Of a stretch of DNA of 10,464 bases, positions 92 through 10,464 are shown in pieces. The number at the start of each line of letters is the position of its first letter. Position 1 is the stretch's first letter. Source of the stretch: Candidatus Micrarchaeota archaeon. Its GTDB lineage: Archaea > Micrarchaeota > Micrarchaeia > Anstonellales > Bilamarchaeaceae. The stretch lies in assembly GCA_040754495.1 (NCBI GenBank), contig JBFMCO010000001.1:1-10464 (forward strand), read 5' to 3'. A program made the translations under genes and the position numbers. Under the pieces are notes generated by a model. It was not told the origin of the DNA. It saw nothing but the letters and a program-made list of their open reading frames with translations, and did not search any database.

Positions 92-1369
92 ATGGAGGTT
101 CTGCTGCCGTTACTCCTTACGTTGCCTCCGGCATCGGGCGCCATGATCGCCCTCGCCCTGGGCCTGGGGGTGCTCATGGTCGGCGGCATGTTCATGATAG
201 CATACGGGATGCAGAACCCCCAGCTCGTCGCCCTTGCGAGGGAGGAGCTGGCCGCCCTGATTTTCTCGGTCATCATCCTCATGTTCTTCATCGGCTCTGA
301 CACCATGCTCAACAGCATCGTAAGCGGCATCGTAGTGTCAACGCTGCCGCCGGATTTGCAGGGCTTTGCAGGCACGGCCACTCTCGGCGGCCTCACGCAG
401 AGCCATCTCAACCTGGCCCTGGCCTCCCTCGGCCTCATAGAGGAGAAGCTCAAGGACCAGTACAAGGACCTCTACATGTTCGAGATGCTGATAGGGTTCC
501 TCTCGACAATCAGCTTCCCGCTCGGCTCCCCGGTCCCGGCGGTCAACGTCATATCATTCTCGCTCGCACCCTTCACGGGCCTCAGCCTCCTCAGCCAGGC
601 GCACACCGTGATAGTCGAATCCATAGGCTACCTCATAACCGTGCTCTGGGCCAAGCAGTTCATACTCATATTCGCGCGCGACGCCGTCCCCATTCTCCTC
701 TTCCCGCTCGGCCTCGTGCTGCGGGTCATCCCCTTCTTCAGGAGGACCGGCTCCAGCGTCATAGCCGTGGCCTTCGCGATGTACTTCATCATGCCGTTTG
801 CCATCATACTCTCCAACTACCTCATCTTCGACGTGTTCAGGCCCGCGGATTTCGCCTACACGCCGAGCGCCGCGAGCTATTTCGGCACCGAGAGGAGCAG
901 GGACCAGGTCCACGGCCAGATCAACGAGGGCCGCGAGGGCGAGGCCGCGCACAACATGCTTGACCAGTTCTTCTCCCCGAGCGTGGTGGGAGAAGCCTCC
1001 GACGACGCCTCGGACGAGTGCTCGGGCAACGCCATTGTCCGGATGCTGTGCAGCGTGAAGAACGTCGTGTCCAGCGCCTTCACCGTCATAAGCGGCTTCG
1101 TCAGGACGGTCTGGAACATATGGAGGTTCATGGTGGGCATGACCGGGGACTTCTTCTGGACCGCGTTCAACAACCCGCTCATGCCGGCAAGCGCCTCGGC
1201 CGGGCTCTTCCATTTCATCATACAGGAGGTAGCCCTAATCAGCCCCTTCATCATCCTCGTGATGCTCACCACAGTGCTTGAAATCATCATAACAGTCACC
1301 GGATACCGGAGCATCGCGCTCCTCATCGGCGGCGAAGCCGAGATAGTGGGCCTTACGAAGGTGGTGTAG
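92..1369 (+). CDS. Multi-pass membrane protein, paralog 1 of 6 (uncharacterised; possibly CedA/VirB6-like), 425 aa
   Basis: Long ORF with strong GC3 bias and several hydrophobic segments. N-terminal hairpin MIAYGMQNPQLVALAREELAALIFS, core motif FPLGLVLRVIPFFRRTG (R codon at 722), C-terminal tail IGGEAEIVGLTKVV. Stop TAG 1367-1369 abuts the next ATG at 1370. Confidence 0.85.
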   Translation: MEVLLPLLLTLPPASGAMIALALGLGVLMVGGMFMIAYGMQNPQLVALAREELAALIFSVIILMFFIGSDTMLNSIVSGIVVSTLPPDLQGFAGTATLGGLTQSHLNLALASLGLIEEKLKDQYKDLYMFEMLIGFLSTISFPLGSPVPAVNVISFSLAPFTGLSLLSQAHTVIVESIGYLITVLWAKQFILIFARDAVPILLFPLGLVLRVIPFFRRTGSSVIAVAFAMYFIMPFAIILSNYLIFDVFRPADFAYTPSAASYFGTERSRDQVHGQINEGREGEAAHNMLDQFFSPSVVGEASDDASDECSGNAIVRMLCSVKNVVSSAFTVISGFVRTVWNIWRFMVGMTGDFFWTAFNNPLMPASASAGLFHFIIQEVALISPFIILVMLTTVLEIIITVTGYRSIALLIGGEAEIVGLTKVV

Positions 1370-2947
1370 ATGAGGCACGCGCTCCTGTTCATCCTGTTGG
1401 CCGCCCTTTCGATGGGCCAGCCCTTCTTCACCGAGCAGCCCAGGGAGCCGACGACGACCGTCATAGACCAGGTGACGGTGATAATGCAGATAATCATCCC
1501 CCTGATGCTCACCTTAGTCGCCGTCGCGGTCGCCGTCTACATGGCCGGCCAGATGTTCGGGGCCGAGACGCGCGCCCGGGCCACGGTGTGGGCGCACGGC
1601 GTGCTGGTCGCGGTGGGCATTTCCGCGGCGATGATAGCGGCGGTTTACATCGTCCTTCCGGGCTTCTTCAGCGGAAACATAACCGACTTCGACGTCGTCC
1701 AGAAAATCGTCCAGCTCCGGAACCTGGCCGCATCGGTCCTGGTCGCCCTCACCCTCGTCCTCGTAATCGTGGCCGGAGCGGTCTATGCGGCCGGCATGAT
1801 GGCAGGGGCCGAGACGCGAGCCAGGGCCAGCGCATGGTCGTCCGGCCTCATCAGCGGCGCGATTTTCACATCCGTCCTGTACGTGCTCATCGGCCAGCTG
1901 TTCCCGGCTGCCGGCGGTGCATTGGAGGCAGCCCTGGCAGTGGCGATTCCCGGAGCGCCTGCTGGCCTCGGCCTGTACGCATTCACCGTCGTGCAGATAG
2001 TCGCGTTCGTGGCCTTTTTCATCCTGATAACCTATCTCATGTCGAAGGTCTTCAAGGTTCCTGAGTGGGAGGCATACCTCAGCATAGAGCTCTCCAGCCT
2101 CATGAGCTCGTTCCTCCTGGTCTTCTTCGTGCTCGGCATGTTCGCGGTTGGGAGCGCAGTGGTCATGGTCTACAGCGGCGGGGGCACCACCAGCCCGCCG
2201 CAGGCGGCCATCGGCTTCATGCAGGGGACGGTCGTGGACAGCACGCTCATGGCTACCATCGACGTCTACAAGATACAGGCATGCACCTCCATCCTCTCCA
2301 CGTTCTCGAGGCGTATCGGCGAGTTCGTGCTCACGCAGACCTACAAGGTCTTCCCCGGCCTCGACACCTTCGTCTCGATAACAAACGTCCTGGGGTTCAC
2401 ACTTCTCTCGCTCTACAACACGGCGAAGGTGCAGGTAATCCTCATGTACGTTGTCGACTCCTTCGTCCTCCCGTTCATACTCCCGGCGGGGCTGGTGCTG
2501 AGGTTCTTCCCGCCGACAAGGGACGCCGGCGCCTTCCTGATAGCGCTCTCCTTCGGCTTCTACGTGGTCTTCCCCCTGACATACCTCCTGAACGCGAAGA
2601 TATTCGAGGAGGTGGGCGCAAGGGCATACAACGCGCCAGGGGAGCGTCCTGCCGCCCTCATCCAGTCGCTCTGCGGGCCCTTCAAGTACGGGGTGGCGGG
2701 CTTCCTGTTCAACCCGAGCGCCAACCCCATCTACGGCCTGATACCCGGCGGAGCAGTCGTAGGCAACGCCCTCTCAAGAATAGTGTCGGAGGGACTCCTG
2801 AACGCAATCTCCATGGCGGAATTCATCCCCATAATGAAGCATATCGGAAACCTCTCCCTGCTGGCCCTTTTCATGCCGGCGCTCTCGATGATGGTCACTA
2901 TAGCCTTCATAAACGCTATGACCAAATTCATAGTATCAAAGGTGTGA
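1370..2947 (+). CDS. Multi-pass membrane protein, paralog 2 of 6, with signal peptide and two extra N-terminal pilin-like (VirB2/TrbC/CedA1-type) hairpin repeats, 525 aa
   Basis: Signal-peptide-like start MRHALLFILLAALSMG. Two repeats, VYMAGQMFGAETRARATVW and VYAAGMMAGAETRARASAW. Core motif LPAGLVLRFFPPTRDAG (R codon at 2501). Lacks the GG-x-x-x-I-x-GL tail. The CDS is well supported; the pilin-like label is inference. Confidence 0.85.
   Translation: MRHALLFILLAALSMGQPFFTEQPREPTTTVIDQVTVIMQIIIPLMLTLVAVAVAVYMAGQMFGAETRARATVWAHGVLVAVGISAAMIAAVYIVLPGFFSGNITDFDVVQKIVQLRNLAASVLVALTLVLVIVAGAVYAAGMMAGAETRARASAWSSGLISGAIFTSVLYVLIGQLFPAAGGALEAALAVAIPGAPAGLGLYAFTVVQIVAFVAFFILITYLMSKVFKVPEWEAYLSIELSSLMSSFLLVFFVLGMFAVGSAVVMVYSGGGTTSPPQAAIGFMQGTVVDSTLMATIDVYKIQACTSILSTFSRRIGEFVLTQTYKVFPGLDTFVSITNVLGFTLLSLYNTAKVQVILMYVVDSFVLPFILPAGLVLRFFPPTRDAGAFLIALSFGFYVVFPLTYLLNAKIFEEVGARAYNAPGERPAALIQSLCGPFKYGVAGFLFNPSANPIYGLIPGGAVVGNALSRIVSEGLLNAISMAEFIPIMKHIGNLSLLALFMPALSMMVTIAFINAMTKFIVSKV
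1490..1906 (+). repeat. Two tandem intragenic repeats, 82 aa (246 nt) apart, in paralog 2
   Basis: GGGGCCGAGACGCGCGCCCGGGCCA at 1559-1583 versus GGGGCCGAGACGCGAGCCAGGGCCA at 1805-1829, both encoding GAETRARA between two hydrophobic helices. The outer boundaries given are approximate. Confidence 0.85.
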
Positions 2948-2948
2948 C

Positions 2949-4391
2949 ATGGCATTCCTGGACCTCTGGACGAGCTGGCTTTGGTTCGCGGGCATTTCGC
3001 TCGGCCTAGCCACGATACTCTCCGCCATAGTCTGGATGCTCTCCGAGCTGCTGCAGAACGACAAGATGAAGGGCTGGGCCAAGATGGAGCTTACCGAGGT
3101 GGTCTATTCGGCCATCATCATCTCTATGGCGGTCACCGGCCTCCCGCTCATAGACGGCGTCGTGCAGGGTGCGCTCGGCGTCTCGAACGTGGGCGGCACG
3201 GGCGGGGGGATGCCCGGCTGCGCCGGGAGCCCTACGAGCTTCTGGATTCCGACCACCGACTACGGGACGTTCAACACGGTCCAGCGCTACGAGTGCCTGG
3301 ACATATGCGGCGAGGCCATCGCGGCGAGCAACATCTCCGTCTATCACGGCGTCGAGTCCTGCCACCTGCGCCTCGGCATATGGTACCTGCGCGAGGTCTT
3401 CGACGAGGCCAAGACGTTCATCTTCGACATCTACCTCAGCTACATCAAGACCTCCATGATAGCCGAGTTCACGATAAACATAGAGTTCCTCTTCGAGAAG
3501 GCCGGCTTCTTCACCTTCACCCCCTGGAAGGGCTTCTACACGATGGGCAACAAGGTGAAGGAGCTCGTCTTCGACTGGACGATAAAGCTGATGATGCTGA
3601 CGAAATTCCAGGAGGTCATGCTCCGCTTCATAGCCACCGCCCTCTTCCCAGCCCTCTTCGTGGCCGGGGCGATGCTGCGCACCTTCACATTCACGCGCCG
3701 CCTCGGCGGCCTGCTCCTTGCGATGGCCATAGCGCTGTATTTCGTGTTCCCGGCCTTCTATTCGTTCGGCGCGCTGATAATGCTGGATTTGAAGAACGAC
3801 CCGCAGGTAAGGGACGCGTGGGCCAACAGCGATACCAATCCCGGCTACAGCAGCCCCACCCTCACCCCCGCCGATTTCCCGGACCCGCCGATTGCCAACA
3901 CCATGTACCTGAGGGGCGACATACCGATGCCGGGCGGAGGGAGGACGAACTTCACCTCCGATGAGGCGAGGGCGCAGCTGCGCAACTACGAGGGCATGAG
4001 TTCCACGGAGTACTACCAGATGATGGAGCAGGCAAGGGACAGCCAGGGCAATGCCCTTATGCCCATGACCGACCCCACCACCGGCAGGATGACGGACCTC
4101 TCCAGCCGCGCGCATGCCACGGCCACAGAGGCCGAGCAGAACGAGTCACTCGCCCGCGCGAGGGCCGAGGCCGACAACTGGTTCGGCAGCGTCTCGCGCG
4201 AGAGCAAGCTCGACAAGTTCATTAATTTCGCATGGGAGCCGAACGGCCCGCTGGACACCCTGGGCCGCCTGACCTTCTGGTCGGTGTTCTTCGCGCTCTT
4301 CGGGATAATCGGGACGATTGCGGCAATCCGGTCGCTCTCGGTCACATTCGGAGGCGACATCGAGATCGCCGGTCTTACGAGGCTGATATGA
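2949..4391 (+). CDS. Multi-pass membrane protein, paralog 3 of 6, with large hydrophilic loops, 480 aa
   Basis: Hairpin VWMLSELLQNDKMKGWAKMELTEVVYS. Cys-containing loop (GCAG...ECLDICG...SCHL). Core motif FVAGAMLRTFTFTRRLG (R codon at 3678). Hydrophilic insert of about 150 aa. Tail FGGDIEIAGLTRLI. 1-nt gap from the previous stop. Confidence 0.85.
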   Translation: MAFLDLWTSWLWFAGISLGLATILSAIVWMLSELLQNDKMKGWAKMELTEVVYSAIIISMAVTGLPLIDGVVQGALGVSNVGGTGGGMPGCAGSPTSFWIPTTDYGTFNTVQRYECLDICGEAIAASNISVYHGVESCHLRLGIWYLREVFDEAKTFIFDIYLSYIKTSMIAEFTINIEFLFEKAGFFTFTPWKGFYTMGNKVKELVFDWTIKLMMLTKFQEVMLRFIATALFPALFVAGAMLRTFTFTRRLGGLLLAMAIALYFVFPAFYSFGALIMLDLKNDPQVRDAWANSDTNPGYSSPTLTPADFPDPPIANTMYLRGDIPMPGGGRTNFTSDEARAQLRNYEGMSSTEYYQMMEQARDSQGNALMPMTDPTTGRMTDLSSRAHATATEAEQNESLARARAEADNWFGSVSRESKLDKFINFAWEPNGPLDTLGRLTFWSVFFALFGIIGTIAAIRSLSVTFGGDIEIAGLTRLI

Positions 4392-4453
4392 TGGAAAGAA
4401 CCGCTTATGCATCCCTGGCGTGGTTCTTTCGGGCTCCACATGAGGCACACAGC

Positions 4454-5686
4454 ATGAAAATGCGGATGCTCGCCCTCCTCCTGCTTATCGCGCCCGCCCT
4501 GCTGGCCACCGACGACGGCTCGCTGAGCGGCTTCTACAACAACACCACCACCTTCATCAGCGGGCAGGGGAGGGACTTCGTCGACGCCTACGGCACGGCC
4601 GGCAGCACCGTCCCGACGACTTTCACGTCCGTCTACGACGCCTTCGGGCCCGGGCAGTGCGGGGACGACTGGATTAACGCCTCGGCCGGGATATCAGGCG
4701 TCATAGGGCTGTGGTACGCGCCTGCAATCCTCGTGACATTCACCGTCCTCCTCGGGGTGGCGATAATCTACATGTGGGGGCAGGTGTTCAACTCCCCCCC
4801 GATGACAGCCCTGGCCAAGGACGAGCTCTTCCAGACCGCGCTCACGGTCGTCCGCGTCGCATTCCTGATAGGGATGCTGGGCGCCGGGGACATCTGGTAC
4901 CAGGTGGGTGCATTGGGGACCTCAGGCACCGACCAGATATACGGCAACCCCAACAACCGCTCGATGATGGACGCGGCGATGGCGTTTGCCAGGCTGATGG
5001 TCAGCGACATGGTCAACCACTACAGCATCCTTATCATGTACAACATGGTCATACACACGCTCTACTCGTCCACGATGTGGGTCGGCGTCACCTGGCGCGC
5101 CATGTACTCGTTCAACCTCGGTCCGGTCCTCAAGCCCCTCGTAGACATCGTAGGGAGCGCTCTCCAGTATCTCTCGCTAGGGATAAGCGAGTGGATGCTC
5201 CACATAGTGACCCTCTGCCTGATAAAGAAATGGACATGGGTCCTGTTCATCCCGATGAGCATGCTCCTCCGCGCATTCCCCTACACGAGAAGCGCGGGCG
5301 AGGCGCTTTTTGCGCTGTGCTTCGCACTGGCCCTGTTCTACCCGTTCATGTTCGTGTTCGATTACGAGGTCCACAAGATCATGAAGTACAACCTCGTGGA
5401 CTCGCAGAAGGCGATGAGCAGCTTCCTGCACAAGAGCGGCATCCTGAGCGTGTTCGGGGCGGCTATAGTGATGATGTTCCTGATGGCAGGGGTTTTCATG
5501 CCATTCTTCCTCGGAGGCGCGCTCACGCTCGCCTTCGAGCTCATACGCAGCGCCGTCTATTACATAGTGATAATGAGCATATTCATGCCATTCATCAATA
5601 TTTTCGTGACGCTCACGGCTGCCAAGGAGATAGCCAACTTCTTCAGAGTGGACGTGAATTTCATGTCGTTCCTGCGGATAATATGA
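4454..5686 (+). CDS. Multi-pass membrane protein, paralog 4 of 6, with signal peptide, about 410 aa (start revised from the ORF track's 4232)
   Basis: ATG 4454 follows GAGG (4442-4445) and gives a signal peptide, MKMRMLALLLLIAPALLA. In-frame ATGs at 4388/4391 overlapping the upstream stop are alternatives. Hairpin IYMWGQVFNSPPMTALAKDELFQTAL, core motif IPMSMLLRAFPYTRSAG (R codon at 5270), degenerate tail FRVDVNFMSFLRII. Confidence 0.8.
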   Translation: MKMRMLALLLLIAPALLATDDGSLSGFYNNTTTFISGQGRDFVDAYGTAGSTVPTTFTSVYDAFGPGQCGDDWINASAGISGVIGLWYAPAILVTFTVLLGVAIIYMWGQVFNSPPMTALAKDELFQTALTVVRVAFLIGMLGAGDIWYQVGALGTSGTDQIYGNPNNRSMMDAAMAFARLMVSDMVNHYSILIMYNMVIHTLYSSTMWVGVTWRAMYSFNLGPVLKPLVDIVGSALQYLSLGISEWMLHIVTLCLIKKWTWVLFIPMSMLLRAFPYTRSAGEALFALCFALALFYPFMFVFDYEVHKIMKYNLVDSQKAMSSFLHKSGILSVFGAAIVMMFLMAGVFMPFFLGGALTLAFELIRSAVYYIVIMSIFMPFINIFVTLTAAKEIANFFRVDVNFMSFLRII

Positions 5687-5689
5687 GGT
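5685..5689 (+). promoter_or_regulatory. Shine-Dalgarno-like GAGGT overlapping the paralog 4 stop codon, serving ATG 5696
   Basis: Sequence ATA-TGA-GGT-AATGAT-ATG: GAGGT ends 6 nt before ATG 5696. Confidence 0.55.
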
Positions 5690-5695
5690 AATGAT

Positions 5696-6832
5696 ATGGC
5701 GATGCTGACACCAGGGGAAATCGTGGCCGGAAGCGCTTCGCTTCCAGGGAGCGAGTTCTACCTCTGGACGTACGCCCTCCTGGCCGTGGGGGCGCTCATG
5801 GTATCCATCGTCCTCCTCGCGTTCATCTACCTGTGGGGCACCCTTTTCAGGAACGCCCAGCTCATCGCCTATGTGAAATCCGAGATGTACGAGCTCGTCG
5901 TCACGGCGGTGCTGATACCGATGATATACGGCGCGGTGGCGGCCATGGGCACGCTGACAATCGGCTCCTTCGTCCCGGCCGAGATGACGCCGGAAGACCC
6001 CGGGGGCGTGGGGACGACCTCGAGCACGCTCATCTACGACGCCGCGGCGCACTACTTCATGCGCGTCGAGCGGGACATGAGCGGATGGCTGGAGATGAAC
6101 TACATCATGAACATGTACGTCGACCAGGTCGCGTCCGTGACGCCGTACGCGAGGCCGCTCGGCGTCGGCCTGGTGGCCTCTCCGATGGCCGGCCTCGCCT
6201 CCCCCCTGAAGCAGCTCCTCTACAACATGAGCGTCGCCCTCTCGCTCGCCTTCGTGATAAACCACGCCCAGCTCGTGGTCTACGTCTTCTCAGTCCACGC
6301 GTTCCTCAAATACTACCTCCCGGTAGGGATATTCCTGCGGGCGTTCACGCCGACGCGCAGGCTCGGCGGGACGCTCATAGGCGTGTCGCTCGCATTCCTG
6401 TTTGTTTTCCCGGCCGTATCGGTCATAACCTATACGATGTTCTACAACAAGGGAGGGGGGCCGCTCGTCACCTTCCGCGGCATGCTCTCGCAGTACATGA
6501 GCGACGGGTGCGACCCGGAGTCCGCCCCGGACAGCATGTGCTTCTCCGGGCATTTCAGCCGGTTCTACGACCGGAACTTCAGCGGCATAGGCGGCGGCGT
6601 CATAGACCTGATAAGCGGCGTGGTCGGCGGCATCGGGAGCCTGCTCCAGAGCGTGGTGGGGAACCTGTTCCTGCTGCTGATGATATTCCCCATATCTGTC
6701 ATCAGTTGGGCATTCGCCATAGGATTCATCGTGCCGGCGTTCAACGTCATCATATTCACGCAGGCGGCAAAGTCGCTCAGCAAGAGCTTCGGGGAAGAGG
6801 TTGACATAAGCTCGCTAACGAGGATGATTTAG
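5696..6832 (+). CDS. Multi-pass membrane protein, paralog 5 of 6, 378 aa
   Basis: Hairpin IYLWGTLFRNAQLIAYVKSEMYELVVT, core motif LPVGIFLRAFTPTRRLG (R codon at 6338), Cys pair GCDPESAPDSMC, tail FGEEVDISSLTRMI. SD-like GAGGT upstream. Confidence 0.85.
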   Translation: MAMLTPGEIVAGSASLPGSEFYLWTYALLAVGALMVSIVLLAFIYLWGTLFRNAQLIAYVKSEMYELVVTAVLIPMIYGAVAAMGTLTIGSFVPAEMTPEDPGGVGTTSSTLIYDAAAHYFMRVERDMSGWLEMNYIMNMYVDQVASVTPYARPLGVGLVASPMAGLASPLKQLLYNMSVALSLAFVINHAQLVVYVFSVHAFLKYYLPVGIFLRAFTPTRRLGGTLIGVSLAFLFVFPAVSVITYTMFYNKGGGPLVTFRGMLSQYMSDGCDPESAPDSMCFSGHFSRFYDRNFSGIGGGVIDLISGVVGGIGSLLQSVVGNLFLLLMIFPISVISWAFAIGFIVPAFNVIIFTQAAKSLSKSFGEEVDISSLTRMI

Positions 6833-6834
6833 GG

Positions 6835-7893
6835 ATGGTGGACTTCACAAGCAGCTTCTACGGATATGACGACTGGAAGACGATATCCATAGGAGCGGCA
6901 GCCATCTCAATCATCGGCTCGGCGGCCCTCATCATGCTCTCCCGCCTCTTCAGCCTGCGCAGCCTGGAGCAGGTCGCGAAGACCGAGTTCGTCTATGCCG
7001 CATCCACCGTGCTCATCGTCATCATGGCGGTGGGCATGATACAGATAGCCGAGCCCCGCCTCGCCGGCCCGGACAACAGCCTCGCCCGCTGCCTCTACCT
7101 CGCCTCCTTCGGGCTCAACTGCACCGACCCTGCCACGTTCACCAACCAGACGACGCTCATAGACTGGATGAAGCTCTACATGGCGACGCCCACGAAATGC
7201 GTGCAGACGTTCATGAACGTCCTCTACGCCCTGGAAGTGCCCATAGCCGCCATGACCTCGGTGTACATGGAGATATTCATGAGCGAGCACGCCTCGGGCT
7301 TCGGCGTGAAGTGGATAGAGGAGCGCATCATGAACGCGACGGCGTCGTTCTCGTTCTACATGTACATGTTCTACCTCATGGTCCATGTGCTCAATTTCAT
7401 CAAGTTCTACGCCGGGTTCTTCTTCTCCATAGGCGTAGCCCTGCGTGCCTTCCCGCCGACCCGCGGCGCAGGCGCGTACCTGATGGCCATCTCCTTCGGC
7501 CTCTACTTCGTCTTCCCCCTCGCCTACATCCTGATAGCCACGCTCGGCCTCCCGCACGCGCAGTCCAACATCCTTTCCTTCAGCTCGAGCGCCGCAGGAG
7601 GGCCCGAATACATCTGCGCGCTTCCGGAAGTGCCCGACATCCAGCCCTACGCGTGCGGCACGGCGGACCCGAGCCGCTTCATGGAGTTCCGCGACGTCAT
7701 CCTCGCGAACCGGGCCCAGCTCGGCGACATGCTCACCCTGCGCCTGCCCGACTTCGAGCGCAACCTCGCCCACTCTATATGCATATTCCCGATGATCGCG
7801 TTCGTGGTGCTCCTGACGTTCGTCCTCAACGGCACCAACCTCTTCGGCGGGAACATCCCGGAGATAGGGCGCGGGCTGGTAAAACTGATATAG
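6835..7893 (+). CDS. Multi-pass membrane protein, paralog 6 of 6, 352 aa
   Basis: Hairpin LIMLSRLFSLRSLEQVAKTEFVYAAST, core motif FSIGVALRAFPPTRGAG (R codon at 7444), several loop cysteines, tail FGGNIPEIGRGLVKLI. 2-nt gap from the previous stop. Confidence 0.85.
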   Translation: MVDFTSSFYGYDDWKTISIGAAAISIIGSAALIMLSRLFSLRSLEQVAKTEFVYAASTVLIVIMAVGMIQIAEPRLAGPDNSLARCLYLASFGLNCTDPATFTNQTTLIDWMKLYMATPTKCVQTFMNVLYALEVPIAAMTSVYMEIFMSEHASGFGVKWIEERIMNATASFSFYMYMFYLMVHVLNFIKFYAGFFFSIGVALRAFPPTRGAGAYLMAISFGLYFVFPLAYILIATLGLPHAQSNILSFSSSAAGGPEYICALPEVPDIQPYACGTADPSRFMEFRDVILANRAQLGDMLTLRLPDFERNLAHSICIFPMIAFVVLLTFVLNGTNLFGGNIPEIGRGLVKLI

Positions 7894-7896
7894 CTG

Positions 7897-8838
7897 ATGA
7901 TTATGGGAGGAGAAAGGGTAAGGACAACCAGCGAATCTGCCGGGCGGCACGGCCAGGCCGAGCAGGCTCCTCCGCAGATGGAAACCGTATCCCCCCAGCG
8001 CCGGGCCCAGCTCGAAGCGAGCCTGAACTACCCTAACAATCCCGGATACCACACGCTGCGCAGCCCGGCTGCCGGCTCGCGCTCGTCTGAGCTGATGGCG
8101 CTCCGCGGCCTCGCCCCGGCCAACCCGGCCCTGCTGTCATTTGCCGATGCCCTCTACCAGCCCGAATTCGTGCACCTCATCCCGGCAAGGCAGGCGCGGC
8201 GGGCGGAAGCCCTCTCGCTGGAGATATTCCGCAGATACCTTTCAAGATACGCCGCCAGCGGGTTGGATGAGAACAACGCAGTCGTGTGGGCCAAGATGGA
8301 CCTGACCAGGACCTACATCGCAAGCACCGAGAACCAGCATAACACGTGGAACGTCCAGCCGATAGTGTACAATCAGACGCATATGAAGGGCGGGCGGTGC
8401 CTGCCCCGGTTCATAGCGGCATTGCACGAGTTCATGCACGTGGAGGAAACGCCCCGGGGGGCCGCGATGGGGTGGGATGCGGTGCCGTCCCCACCCCCTG
8501 CGCAAGCCGCGGGGCCCGTAAGCTCAGTGCAGGCTGCTGCCGGAGGGCCGAGTATCGAGATGCTCAGCGAGCTGATGCCGACAATCATGACGCTCGTGCT
8601 TTCCGACGAGGTGTATAAGCGGCTGAATAACATCCCCCTCAACCGGGCAGTCAATTACGGGCAGTCGGTGCAGTGGGACGGCCACTCGGTCCAGCTGGGA
8701 CGGGTCGCCAACTTCTACCGCTCCCTGATTGACCGCTACGGCTCGGTAGGGGCCGCGGCCGCCTCTCCTGAATCGCTCGAGTTCATGCGCCAGGGCCGCA
8801 TCCCTCCCGCGATGGTCACCCCGGTGCGCGCGCGGTAG
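7897..8838 (+). CDS. Hypothetical soluble protein with HExxH motif, putative zinc metallopeptidase, 313 aa (alternative start 7903)
   Basis: Starts 3 nt after the paralog 6 stop. FIAALHEFMHVEE (HEFMH at 8425-8439, H177-H181), with a candidate third-ligand Glu in SELMPT (E225, 8569-8571). No obvious signal peptide or long hydrophobic helix. Low-complexity N-terminus and a Pro/Ala-rich insert. Confidence 0.65.
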   Translation: MIMGGERVRTTSESAGRHGQAEQAPPQMETVSPQRRAQLEASLNYPNNPGYHTLRSPAAGSRSSELMALRGLAPANPALLSFADALYQPEFVHLIPARQARRAEALSLEIFRRYLSRYAASGLDENNAVVWAKMDLTRTYIASTENQHNTWNVQPIVYNQTHMKGGRCLPRFIAALHEFMHVEETPRGAAMGWDAVPSPPPAQAAGPVSSVQAAAGGPSIEMLSELMPTIMTLVLSDEVYKRLNNIPLNRAVNYGQSVQWDGHSVQLGRVANFYRSLIDRYGSVGAAAASPESLEFMRQGRIPPAMVTPVRAR

Positions 8839-8872: not shown

Positions 8873-9436
8873 ATGCCAGTCCGCAGGTACGTCATAGACA
8901 CATCCCTCTTCGTGAACCCGCACGCCCGCGAGAAGTTCGGGCCGGACCCGAGCTCGGCGGTCATGGCTTTCGTGAAGCAGGCCGGGGAGCTCGGCATAGA
9001 CGTCTTTATGCCGCCCTCGATATTCAACGAGCTGAAGAACTTCGTGGACGGGAAATCCATGGAGGAGCTCGAGCTTGTCGTCAAGAAGCGCGCCCCGAAC
9101 ACGTACAGCATCTACCTGCCAGCCGCGGTCCTATATGATTTCATCGAGGACGTCCGCCTCCGCATCAACAAGGGCCTCCGCCTCTCCGAGGAGTTCGCAA
9201 AGGACAACAGGCCGGACAACGACGAGAAGCTCCGCAGGCTGAGGGACAAGTACCGGGAAGCCATGCGGACCGGCATAATCGACAGCAAGGAGGATTTCGA
9301 GCTCGTGCTCCTTGCCAAGGAGCTGGAGGCGACGCTCGTCTCTTCGGACGAAGGGGTGCTGAAATTCGCGGACCAGGTAGGATGCGAGCATCTCCCGGCC
9401 GACAAGTTCCACGCACTATTAAGAAAGCTGAAATAA
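8873..9436 (+). CDS. RNA-free (protein-only) ribonuclease P, HARP / Aq_880 family PIN-domain protein, 187 aa
   Basis: Recognisable family motifs: N-terminal YVIDTS, spike-helix region LPAAVLYDFIEDVRLRINKGLRLSEE...LRDKYREAMRTG, and catalytic acidic cluster GIIDSKEDFELVLLAKEL...SSDEG. The length matches the family. Confidence 0.93.
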   Translation: MPVRRYVIDTSLFVNPHAREKFGPDPSSAVMAFVKQAGELGIDVFMPPSIFNELKNFVDGKSMEELELVVKKRAPNTYSIYLPAAVLYDFIEDVRLRINKGLRLSEEFAKDNRPDNDEKLRRLRDKYREAMRTGIIDSKEDFELVLLAKELEATLVSSDEGVLKFADQVGCEHLPADKFHALLRKLK

Positions 9437-9484: not shown

Positions 9485-10340
9485 ATGAGAGCTATTCCCG
9501 CAAGGTTTTACATGCGGCCTACTGTGCTCCTGGCCATCCTGGCTCTGGCAGGCATCTCGTTCACGGCAAGCATTTCAGGCTGCCAGCAGATAGACAACGT
9601 GACCGATACCACCTACGCCCTCGCGAACAACCTAGTCGGCGCGAACATCAGCGCGTCTCCATTCGGCGGCAACGCGTGCCTGAAAATCGTCTCCTCAAAC
9701 ATCGTCCTGGACTGCAACGGCTACAACATCACCGACAGCGTCGGAACTACGAGCTACGGTATCCTCCTCAACGGCTCCCTGACCAACGTCACGGTGAAGA
9801 ACTGCCCTAGGATATTCGACTATAGCTACGGGCTGTACTCATACCGCACCAAATCAAGCGCATTCTACAACAATTCAGCCAGAAACAGTGGCAGCACAGG
9901 TATCTATCTTGATGAAACTAACGAAAGCCTGTTCGTCAACAACAGCGTCAACGGCAGCACCTACGGCTTCTACCTCTCATCAAGCCACGACAATAGCCTC
10001 ATCAACAATAGCGGCGTCGGCGCAACCTTTGCCTTCTACGTCTCATCAAGCCACAACAACAACTTCACGGATAACCTTGCAATCCCGGCCAACAGCTACG
10101 GCTTCTACCTCACATCAAGCCACAACAACAGCCTCAGGAACAGCACGTTCAGCAACGCATACTACGGCTTCTACCTCTCATCAAGCCACAACAACACGAT
10201 GCTGGACAGCGCCTTCAGGACCAACAACGGCTACGGCATCACCCTCTCGGGCAGCCACAACAACACCATGGGCAACGTCAGCATCAACAACTCCTACTAC
10301 GGTTTCTATATCGCAAGCTCGAGCCATAACAACACGGTTG
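9485..10340 (+). pseudogene. Secreted right-handed parallel beta-helix (NosD/CASH-like) surface protein, interrupted by an IS3-family element at 10341; not in the ORF track because the frame has no stop in the window
   Basis: My translation from 9485: MRAIPARFYMRPTVLLAILALAGISFTASISGCQQIDNVTDTTYALANNLVG...CLKIVSSNIVLDCNGYNIT...YGILLNGSLTNVTVKNC, then YGFYLSSSHNN coils. Signal peptide (start may be ATG 9512), typical LDCNGY motif, many N-x-S/T sequons. Native-looking sequence ends at about 10340. Confidence 0.8.
9962..10333 (+). repeat. Six intragenic beta-helix coil repeats (TACGGCTTCTACCTCTCATCAAGCCACAACAAC consensus)
   Basis: Copies start at 9962, 10028, 10097, 10163, 10232 and 10298 (spacings 66, 69, 66, 69, 66 nt). 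All are in frame and encode YGFYLSSSH(N/D)N variants. Confidence 0.85.
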
Positions 10341-10464
10341 TGGACTGCACCCCTAAAAGTGGACAATTAGAAAAGACTCATCCCACTATTGAAAAGGGGT
10401 GCAAAAATGAAATTGAAGCGCAGGTTCACGAGAGAATTCAAGCTGGCAGTAGTACGGGAGCTGC
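10341..10464 (+). mobile_element. IS3-family insertion sequence (IS150-like end), left end, truncated by the window edge
   Basis: TGGACTGCACCCCTAAAAGTGGACA (10341-10365) fits the TG-x-ACTGCACCC...TGGAC pattern I recall for IS3/IS150-group terminal inverted repeats. The sequence turns abruptly AT-rich, the host coil pattern stops, and an SD plus an IS3 orfA-like ORF follow. Confidence 0.85.
10407..10464 (+). CDS. IS3-family transposase OrfA N-terminus (HTH_Tnp_1-like), partial
   Basis: ATG 10407 after SD-like AGGGGTG (10395-10401). Translates MKLKRRFTREFKLAVVREL, matching the typical OrfA start R-x-(F/Y)-(S/T)-x-E-F-K-x-x-x-V. Only 19 codons are visible. Confidence 0.8.
   Translation, partial: MKLKRRFTREFKLAVVREL

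Follow-up and report, generated by a model that had tools for sequence, protein, structure and literature searches.

Six old paralogous membrane proteins as the probable platform of a Ced/type IV secretion-like apparatus in Micrarchaeota

Two DNA import systems have been described in the Crenarchaeota: Ced, in the Sulfolobales, consists of the channel proteins CedA and CedE, the pilin CedA1 and the ATPases CedB and CedD, and Ted, in the Thermoproteales, consists of TedA, TedC and TedB. CedE has been reported with five helices (PMC11868833), and both CedA and VirB6 of type IV secretion systems (T4SS) are reported to have pilin-like N-termini (PMC9905601). For DPANN archaea, both the attachment to hosts and the uptake of host material still await an explanation. 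Here, we propose that six consecutive membrane protein genes (g1 to g6) of a Candidatus Micrarchaeota archaeon together encode a diversified membrane platform, that of a T4SS/Ced-like apparatus shared across the Micrarchaeota. We consider this probable because members of the family take the position and the topology of VirB6/CedA, and because the pilins and ATPases that accompany them are recognisable. The genes lie in a window of 10,464 nucleotides (nt), the first 10.5 kb of contig C1 (JBFMCO010000001.1) of GenBank assembly GCA_040754495.1, which comprises 1.63 Mb in 72 contigs and is 80% complete.

All six genes run on the + strand with intergenic gaps of 0, 1, 62, 9 and 2 nt, and the open reading frame (ORF) coordinates agree with this arrangement as it stood in an initial annotation of the sequence. 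The first, g1 (92-1369, +), encodes a five-segment membrane protein of 425 residues with the loop LRVIPFFRRTG and the tail GGEAEIVGLTKVV. It is followed by g2 (1370-2947, +; 525 residues), in which the five-segment core is preceded by two VirB2-type pilin hairpins in tandem and, before them, a signal peptide, and by g3 (2949-4391, +; 480 residues), which has the largest extracytoplasmic loops among the six and the tail GGDIEIAGLTRLI. The longest ORF of g4 (4454-5686, +; 410 residues) opens at 4232; because its orthologs span 409-415 residues and a signal peptide (MKMRMLALLLLIAPALLA) opens at ATG 4454, we place the start there, and it follows that 62 nt separate g3 from g4. The last two genes, g5 (5696-6832, +; 378 residues) and g6 (6835-7893, +; 352 residues), encode proteins ending in the tails GEEVDISSLTRMI and GGNIPEIGRGLVKLI, respectively.

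Each of the six proteins has a single copy of the loop LRx(F/I)xxxRxxG, with its first arginine codon at 722, 2501, 3678, 5270, 6338 and 7444, and the distance from the arginine to the glycine codon is exactly 27 nt in all six. An N-terminal hairpin motif (A-K/R-x-E) and PxxG-like strings are visible in the translations, and the hairpin, turn and loop described in the initial annotation are thus confirmed. To these is added a C-terminal tail motif (G-G-x-x-E-I-x-G-L-x-K/R-L/V-I), degenerate in g2 and g4. In an alignment of 95 sequences from all six families, residue G224 of g5 is invariant and E63, G211, R215, R221 and P239 are at least 90% conserved. Despite a pairwise identity of 15-24% among g1-g6, the six ortholog profiles (55-64 orthologs per gene) match one another in hhalign with probabilities of 97.5-99.7% and E-values of 7e-12 to 3e-27; hence, on the strength of their profiles, g1-g6 are true, old paralogs.

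Hydropathy indicates a shared five-segment core in all six proteins, to which signal peptides are added in g2 and g4 and two extra hairpins in g2. The short loop 3, with the LR..TR..G motif, has a net positive charge, and loops 2 and 4, both long, are acidic on balance; from this, the positive-inside rule predicts a core with its N-terminus outside and its C-terminus inside. All six thus have the polytopic topology of about five helices with a large extracytoplasmic loop that is expected of VirB6/TrbL. VirB6 itself has five segments with a positively charged inner loop, like the core of g1-g6.

What is the genomic company of these proteins? In four more distant Micrarchaeota (G003, G038, G011 and G016), the six paralogs are followed on one strand by two genes for proteins with two transmembrane helices (2TM) and a coiled coil and then by an ATPase of about 500 residues, 41-43% identical to that of the present genome. 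Pilin-like genes lie just upstream of the six paralogs in the same four genomes (for example at G016:C1:686371). Seven relatives carry a contiguous series of pilin, paralog, 2TM coiled-coil protein and ATPase (L079-L081, L083, L085, L089 and L090), in which the paralog is a seventh member of the family and the ATPase a second of its kind, and members of the family lie between a VirB2-type pilin and a VirB4-type ATPase in L079-L087, L089 and L090. In the present genome, the six-gene set lies apart from the ATPases and pilins, which are on other contigs, and the window itself does not show the pilin-ATPase position; a Pfam scan of its ORFs confirmed the earlier statement that it encodes no ATPase. 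Across the phylum, the ATPase was found in 57 of 61 sampled genomes, pilins in 56 of the 61 and the paralogs in 222/251, and in four genomes (G018, G020, G046 and G056, of families f13, f14 and f17) none of the three was found. The suggested search for co-occurring secretion ATPases and pilins has therefore returned CedB/VirB4-like ATPases and VirB2-type pilins, physically linked to the paralogs in relatives.

The pilins of this genome are recognised through their family. A stand-alone pilin of 124 residues on contig C46 has, after its signal peptide, two hydrophobic helices that are connected by GAETRARA, a loop common to this pilin and both N-terminal repeats of g2, and a second stand-alone pilin is encoded on C5; these are the counterparts of the VirB2-like CedA1/TedC component of Ced/Ted. 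Six of ten members of the pilin family match Pfam TrbC/VirB2 (best E 7e-6) and T4SS_pilin, and the top PDB match of the family profile is TrwL (E 0.18); the C46 pilin alone has no pilin match in the PDB or NCBIfam, its link appearing through the family only. In g2, the two tandem hairpin repeats (approximately 1385-1951, +) match the pilin profile A9 (E 1e-28 and 1e-30) and are 30-31% identical to the C46 pilin, and the N-terminal 200 residues weakly match NCBIfam TrwL/VirB2 (E 9e-4). We count these true pilin repeats in favour of the VirB6/CedA-like reading since the N-termini of CedA and VirB6 are reported to be pilin-like (PMC9905601). Distant g2 orthologs have just 300-340 residues or so, and the N-terminal part of g2 is consequently consistent with a lineage-specific addition.

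Small ORFs matching the g2 N-terminus were found by profile search elsewhere in the same genome, and pilin-profile matches number up to seven per genome. Tandem arrays of 3-4 VirB2-type pilin genes occur in same-order relatives (G025:C16:7542-8984, G013:C13:12738-13774 and G012:C13:9691-10708). The C46 pilin adjoins a 390-residue ORF (L076:4026-5198) that, as judged by sequence, resembles a TnpB/OrfB-type transposon protein.

The ATPase is found on contig C32, where a singleton paralog (C32:44340-45413, located by profile search) is followed by a 264-residue protein with two helices and a coiled coil and, some 3 kb further, by an ATPase of 524 residues; the singleton itself is about 4 kb upstream of the ATPase. 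The best NCBIfam matches of this ATPase are CedB (5e-27), the VirB4-like CD1110 (5e-24), CedD and Mbov_0397 VirB4, which rank above HerA (7e-15), and it exceeds the Pfam cut-offs for DUF87, AAA_10 and TrwB_AAD_bind. A second CedB/VirB4-like ATPase lies on C71 (best NCBIfam E-values for the C32 and C71 proteins, 5e-27 to 4e-19, with AAA_10 and DUF87 above the Pfam cut-offs), and the two supply the CedB/TedB (VirB4-like) component of Ced/Ted; the ATPase on C31 is a true HerA. A tblastn search of the ATPase against plasmids gave generic matches only, at around 25% identity.

Of 19 CedB-like ATPase loci that were examined, 14 have a 2TM coiled-coil gene just upstream of the ATPase, abutting it when it is the last gene before. 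The gene encodes a protein of 240-290 residues with two N-terminal helices and a coiled-coil domain and no family match, and may be a counterpart of VirB3 or of the VirB4 N-domain. In the present genome it occupies L075:7440-8231, with homologs in L079-L082, L084-L087, L090-L093, L095 and L097 and the two copies beside the six paralogs of G003, G038, G011 and G016. A 926-residue ORF of no recognised family (L075:8253-11033, -) separates the 264-residue gene from the ATPase here; in G050, of the same genus, no more than some 50 nt lie between the counterparts of the two genes. Families f10/f11 have, downstream of the ATPase, a 98-residue gene (L084:11373-11666) homologous to the last 90 or so residues of the ATPases, followed by a gene for a zinc-ribbon and transmembrane protein of about 119 residues. 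The G011 ATPase is homologous to the 98-residue protein at its own C-terminus though such a gene is already downstream, and the sequences suggest that the small gene is a duplicated or split C-terminal module of the ATPase.

Do the six proteins then share sequence or fold with VirB6? By sequence, none of the six was placed in PF04610 (VirB6/TrbL), and 35 g2 orthologs searched against Pfam and NCBIfam gave no PF04610 match and nothing usable, and a PDB sequence-profile search with the g5 family returned no match. TrbL_3 (PF19590) matched 0/251 genomes of the phylum, yet control genomes were equally unmatched, which makes this result uninformative. The AlphaFold2 models of g5 (predicted local distance difference test, pLDDT, 79.6; predicted TM-score, pTM, 0.70) and of the C32 singleton (pLDDT 85, pTM 0.78) are all-helical, each with a helical outer domain. 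Aligned with VIA-align to TrwI, the VirB6 protein in PDB chain 7o3v_F, the g5 model gave Z 7.8 with a root-mean-square deviation (rmsd) of 6.7 Å over 238 residues, and the singleton gave Z 9.0 and rmsd 6.2 Å over 235/261 residues (rank 3). The Foldseek probabilities for TrwI were 0.66 (g5) and 0.80 (singleton), with E-values of 0.4-0.5 and a TM-score of up to 0.41. Among natural proteins that match over nearly the full length, TrwI ranks first with both models, and most of the g5 model can also be aligned with DotA of the Dot/Icm T4SS (VIA-align Z 7.4). Nothing in the PDB reached E<=0.001 in Foldseek with either model, and TTYH channels and designed helical proteins rank alongside TrwI; the likeness of the models to the VirB6/TrwI fold is suggestive only.

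Two leads from the ESM Atlas point in a similar direction, namely an Altiarchaeota cluster with TrbL_3 on 14% of its members and a Micrarchaeota cluster with a CedA1 domain on 23% of its members (feature score 0.89). A complex prediction for g5 with g6 gave 0.00 in both runs, a value that counts neither for nor against binding. Of the Ced/T4SS-like apparatus put forward in the initial annotation, the pilin and ATPase co-occurrence and linkage in relatives have stood, and descent from VirB6/CedA found no sequence-level support. The comparison with VirB6 that it had called for was likewise borne out in part: TrwI came first among near-full-length natural folds, but no profile link was found and the fold scores stayed in the chance range.

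Several of our results weigh against placing g1-g6 in a T4SS/Ced-like apparatus. None of the six matches any Pfam (E<=0.1) or NCBIfam family, bar the weak match of the g2 N-terminus to TrwL. The pan-family core (A3) and g5 (A1) profiles gave hhalign probabilities of 0.1-0.2% against a TrwI profile, which was built from 33 homologs of R388 TrwI and is narrow (members at least 51% identical), so that remote homology could escape it. Given the pilin profile and the family-wide hairpin, hhalign aligned the right region, but with probabilities of only 4% and 0.6%. Helical proteins can reach fold scores like those for TrwI by chance, and a designed repeat protein does as well as TrwI. All NCBIfam scores of the ATPase are far below curated cut-offs. 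The six-gene set adjoins no ATPase here or in the same-order relatives checked (G031, G001 and G012), and the ATPase of G042 is also unlinked to the six genes. Finally, co-occurrence is a pattern among related genomes, and the three families concerned may be too divergent for the components to be detected.

We regard as unlikely, though as the strongest of the rivals, an alternative in which g1-g6 form a lineage-specific membrane complex unrelated to VirB6/CedA by descent, acting with a HerA-type ATPase and small two-helix proteins, so that the likeness to a T4SS is convergent and the task is adhesion-pilus assembly only, surface-layer anchoring or membrane remodelling. The missing profile link to TrwI or any Pfam or NCBIfam family and the weak fold matches would agree with such a complex, as would the setting of the core genes among housekeeping genes (aspartyl-tRNA synthetase (AspRS), RNA polymerase and an RNA ligase partner). 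However, the small proteins match the VirB2/TrbC pilin families specifically, the ATPase is nearer to CedB/VirB4 than to HerA, the order of pilin, polytopic protein and ATPase is that of minimal T4SS/Ced/Ted loci (PMC9905601), and VirB6 is the best natural fold match over nearly the full length in two separate models. We therefore retain the T4SS/Ced-like platform as the probable reading of g1-g6.

How widely and in what order these genes are kept bears on a further alternative, that they are part of a mobile conjugative element such as an integrated plasmid or an integrative and conjugative element. The search for g5 homologs returned 177 proteins, of which every taxon-bearing source name is Micrarchaeota, all named ones are called "hypothetical" and the listed ones share 46-78% identity with g5. 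In a scan of genomes, 63 loci were recovered (27-80% identity to the window), almost all with Micrarchaeota titles and a few named only 'archaeon' or 'ainarchaeum', and the DPANN-like archaeon suspected from the sequence is accordingly a member of the Micrarchaeota. The order g1-g2-g3-g4-g5-g6 is constant in every locus long enough to judge, and the suggested check on synteny thus found the clustering conserved. In a FastTree phylogeny, each of the six genes forms a separate clade with support of 99-100 (g1 100, g3 99, g4 99), and the g6 clade falls in an unresolved group (support 90) with the pilin- and ATPase-linked seventh paralog. Separate clades for the six genes and an order that does not vary among the 63 loci support the earlier view that the duplications are old and were retained as divergent copies. 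The g5 profile matches 222/251 genomes across the phylum and 147/166 high-quality genomes (both tallies include two unpublished genomes, G029 and G198, on which no single claim depends); it is universal in most families, was not found in f13 and f17 and matches 2/11 genomes of f14. In the three loci whose neighbours were read (L001-L003), AspRS is divergent upstream and PIN_5 and RNA ligase are downstream, and in L001 and L002 RNA polymerase A'/A'', L7Ae and NusA are near the set.

The conjugation-like parts, together with the three six-gene sets and the insertion sequences of this genome, are what a mobile element would bring. We nevertheless find such an element very improbable: the AspRS and PIN_5 flanks recur in L001-L003, order 1-6 holds throughout the 63 loci where they are long enough to judge, the family is nearly phylum-wide, the GC content is even over the whole window, and neither a VirD4-type coupling protein (PF02534) nor a relaxase (PF03432) was found at E<=0.01 in this genome, which is 80% complete and was searched for these two families alone.

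We also give hardly any weight to the explanation that g1-g6 belong to a transporter of solutes or ions, whether an ABC-type or a secondary permease. Polytopic, operon-encoded proteins would fit it, but no match to Pfam or NCBIfam reaches curated level (single g2 orthologs gave isolated weak matches to the DctQ and TctB transporter families, E 0.011-0.022, from one member in each case). In the fold searches, chains of transporters are confined to rows of low probability and low TM-score, of which none stands out, no binding protein or ABC ATPase is nearby, and a permease core would not be expected to have such large helical outer domains, so that the check for a confident match to an unrelated known family has come up empty.

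The assembly, searched with the six profiles, holds two more six-gene sets, at C31:34530-41923 and C37:1025-8122 (within L073, C31:33001-41923, and L074, C37:1-8122, of G000). The product of the gene that follows each set is rich in cysteine and resembles a secreted lipoprotein, with a lipobox-like signal (511 and at least 341 residues, 30% identical to each other). The third genes of these sets are enlarged, to 740 and 890 residues. Since the extra sets, along with one set of G012, group position by position beside g1, g3, g4 and g6 in the tree (support 83-90), they point to an old duplication of the whole operon. The C32 singleton groups with the "module 2" paralog of other genomes, the seventh family member, with support of 98.

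Around the six genes, an AT-rich stretch 5' of the g1 start (61-88, +), with TATTAAAAAG at 61-70 and TATATAAA at 81-88, is a possible archaeal TATA box for a near-leaderless operon transcript. A soluble protein of 313 residues (7897-8838) begins 3 nt past g6; it has an HEFMH motif and a Pro/Ala-rich insert and no Pfam or NCBIfam match, and homologs stand 3' of g6 in some relatives only (L009, L014 and L016), being absent from L001. Pfam and NCBIfam scans assign the next genes to a PIN_5 "RNA ligase partner" (8873-9436) and a NosD/beta-helix protein (from 9485). At 10337-10464 the NosD-like gene runs into an IS3-like start, where an ORF at 10408 opens with MKLKRRFTREFKLAVVRELQ and resembles IS3 OrfA.

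If g1-g6 are indeed the platform of a T4SS/Ced-like apparatus, how might it work? Six specialised paralogs of a five-helix protein would play the part of VirB6/CedA as membrane platform or channel. On the outside each would have two large loops, and on the inside a short loop rich in arginine and a conserved tail. The motor would be the CedB/VirB4-like ATPase paired with the 2TM coiled-coil membrane protein, and VirB2-type pilins would build the filament or conduit. In this genome the parts lie scattered, the window holding the conserved core set in housekeeping surroundings and other contigs the ATPases, the seventh paralog and the pilins. The six proteins may co-assemble, perhaps one of each under a hexameric ATPase, with the cytoplasmic tail and arginine loop contacting the ATPase or its 2TM partner, and the machine may move DNA or other macromolecules during cell contact. 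A more specific version, a one-of-each hetero-hexameric VirB6-like ring seated, by way of its conserved cytoplasmic tails and arginine loops, on a hexameric CedB/VirB4-like ATPase and forming, with VirB2-type pilins, a conduit for host DNA, lipids or proteins, is one that we put forward tentatively, with more doubt than confidence. Were it true, a symbiosis organelle long sought in DPANN archaea would have been found for one phylum, and the essential T4SS of bacteria of the candidate phyla radiation (CPR) would have its archaeal counterpart in this ring.

No database gives the six-paralog family of Micrarchaeota a name, and we found the system described in none of the literature searched on Micrarchaeota or DPANN together with VirB6, VirB4, CedA, type IV secretion or conjugative pilins. 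The proposed Micrarchaeota machine is a concrete candidate for host attachment and the uptake of host material, and it gives precise targets for study in the few Micrarchaeota co-cultures.

Of the known systems, Ced and Ted offer the nearest comparison. Like them, the Micrarchaeota system would be archaeal and chromosomally encoded, and would combine a VirB2-type pilin with a polytopic protein of five to six helices and with CedB/VirB4-like ATPases (PMC11868833, PMC9905601). Its polytopic proteins include one with a pilin-like N-terminal part (here the g2 repeats), several channel paralogs occur with several ATPases as in CedA/CedE with CedB/CedD (PMC11868833), and the relaxase and coupling protein that were not found here are lacking in Ced/Ted too. 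Unlike Ced/Ted, which have one or two channel paralogs, it has six in fixed order plus a seventh, a conserved 2TM coiled-coil partner upstream of the ATPase, and a spread over a whole DPANN phylum of small, host-dependent genomes; DNA import, the function of Ced/Ted, would be one possible task of the Micrarchaeota system. This system would extend Ced/Ted from the Crenarchaeota to DPANN.

With VirB6/TrbL (TrwI of R388, PDB 7o3v and 8rt9; PF04610), the family shares the five-segment topology with a large outer domain, an operon place between pilin and VirB4-type ATPase (in relatives) and, at scores that are suggestive only, the best whole-chain fold match. It differs in showing no profile-profile similarity and no PF04610 match, in encoding six different subunits whereas TrwI is a homopentamer, and in the LRxFPxTRxxG loop and C-terminal tail motif, which are specific to the Micrarchaeota family. 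The Rickettsiales vir homolog T4SS similarly has several diverged VirB6-type genes that adjoin one another on the chromosome, and its bearers are obligately host-associated (PMC2653234, PMC7648143), but its VirB6 paralogs are bacterial, detectable as VirB6 by sequence, often giant through extensions and part of a full diderm T4SS, and the link is by analogy only.

The T4SS of the Patescibacteria/CPR is also near-universal and chromosomal in ultrasmall episymbionts, with VirB4, VirB6 and VirB2-like pilins encoded near each other, and this monoderm-type T4SS has been reported to be essential for epibiotic growth in one strain (PMC12102498). It is bacterial, usually with a single VirB6 and a VirB4 recognised by standard profiles, whereas VirB6-like genes number six or seven in the Micrarchaeota system, where the ATPase is shorter and is paired with a separate membrane protein. 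A Micrarchaeota machine of the kind proposed here would parallel the essential CPR system, and the parallel would suggest convergence on such machines among the ultrasmall symbionts of both domains.

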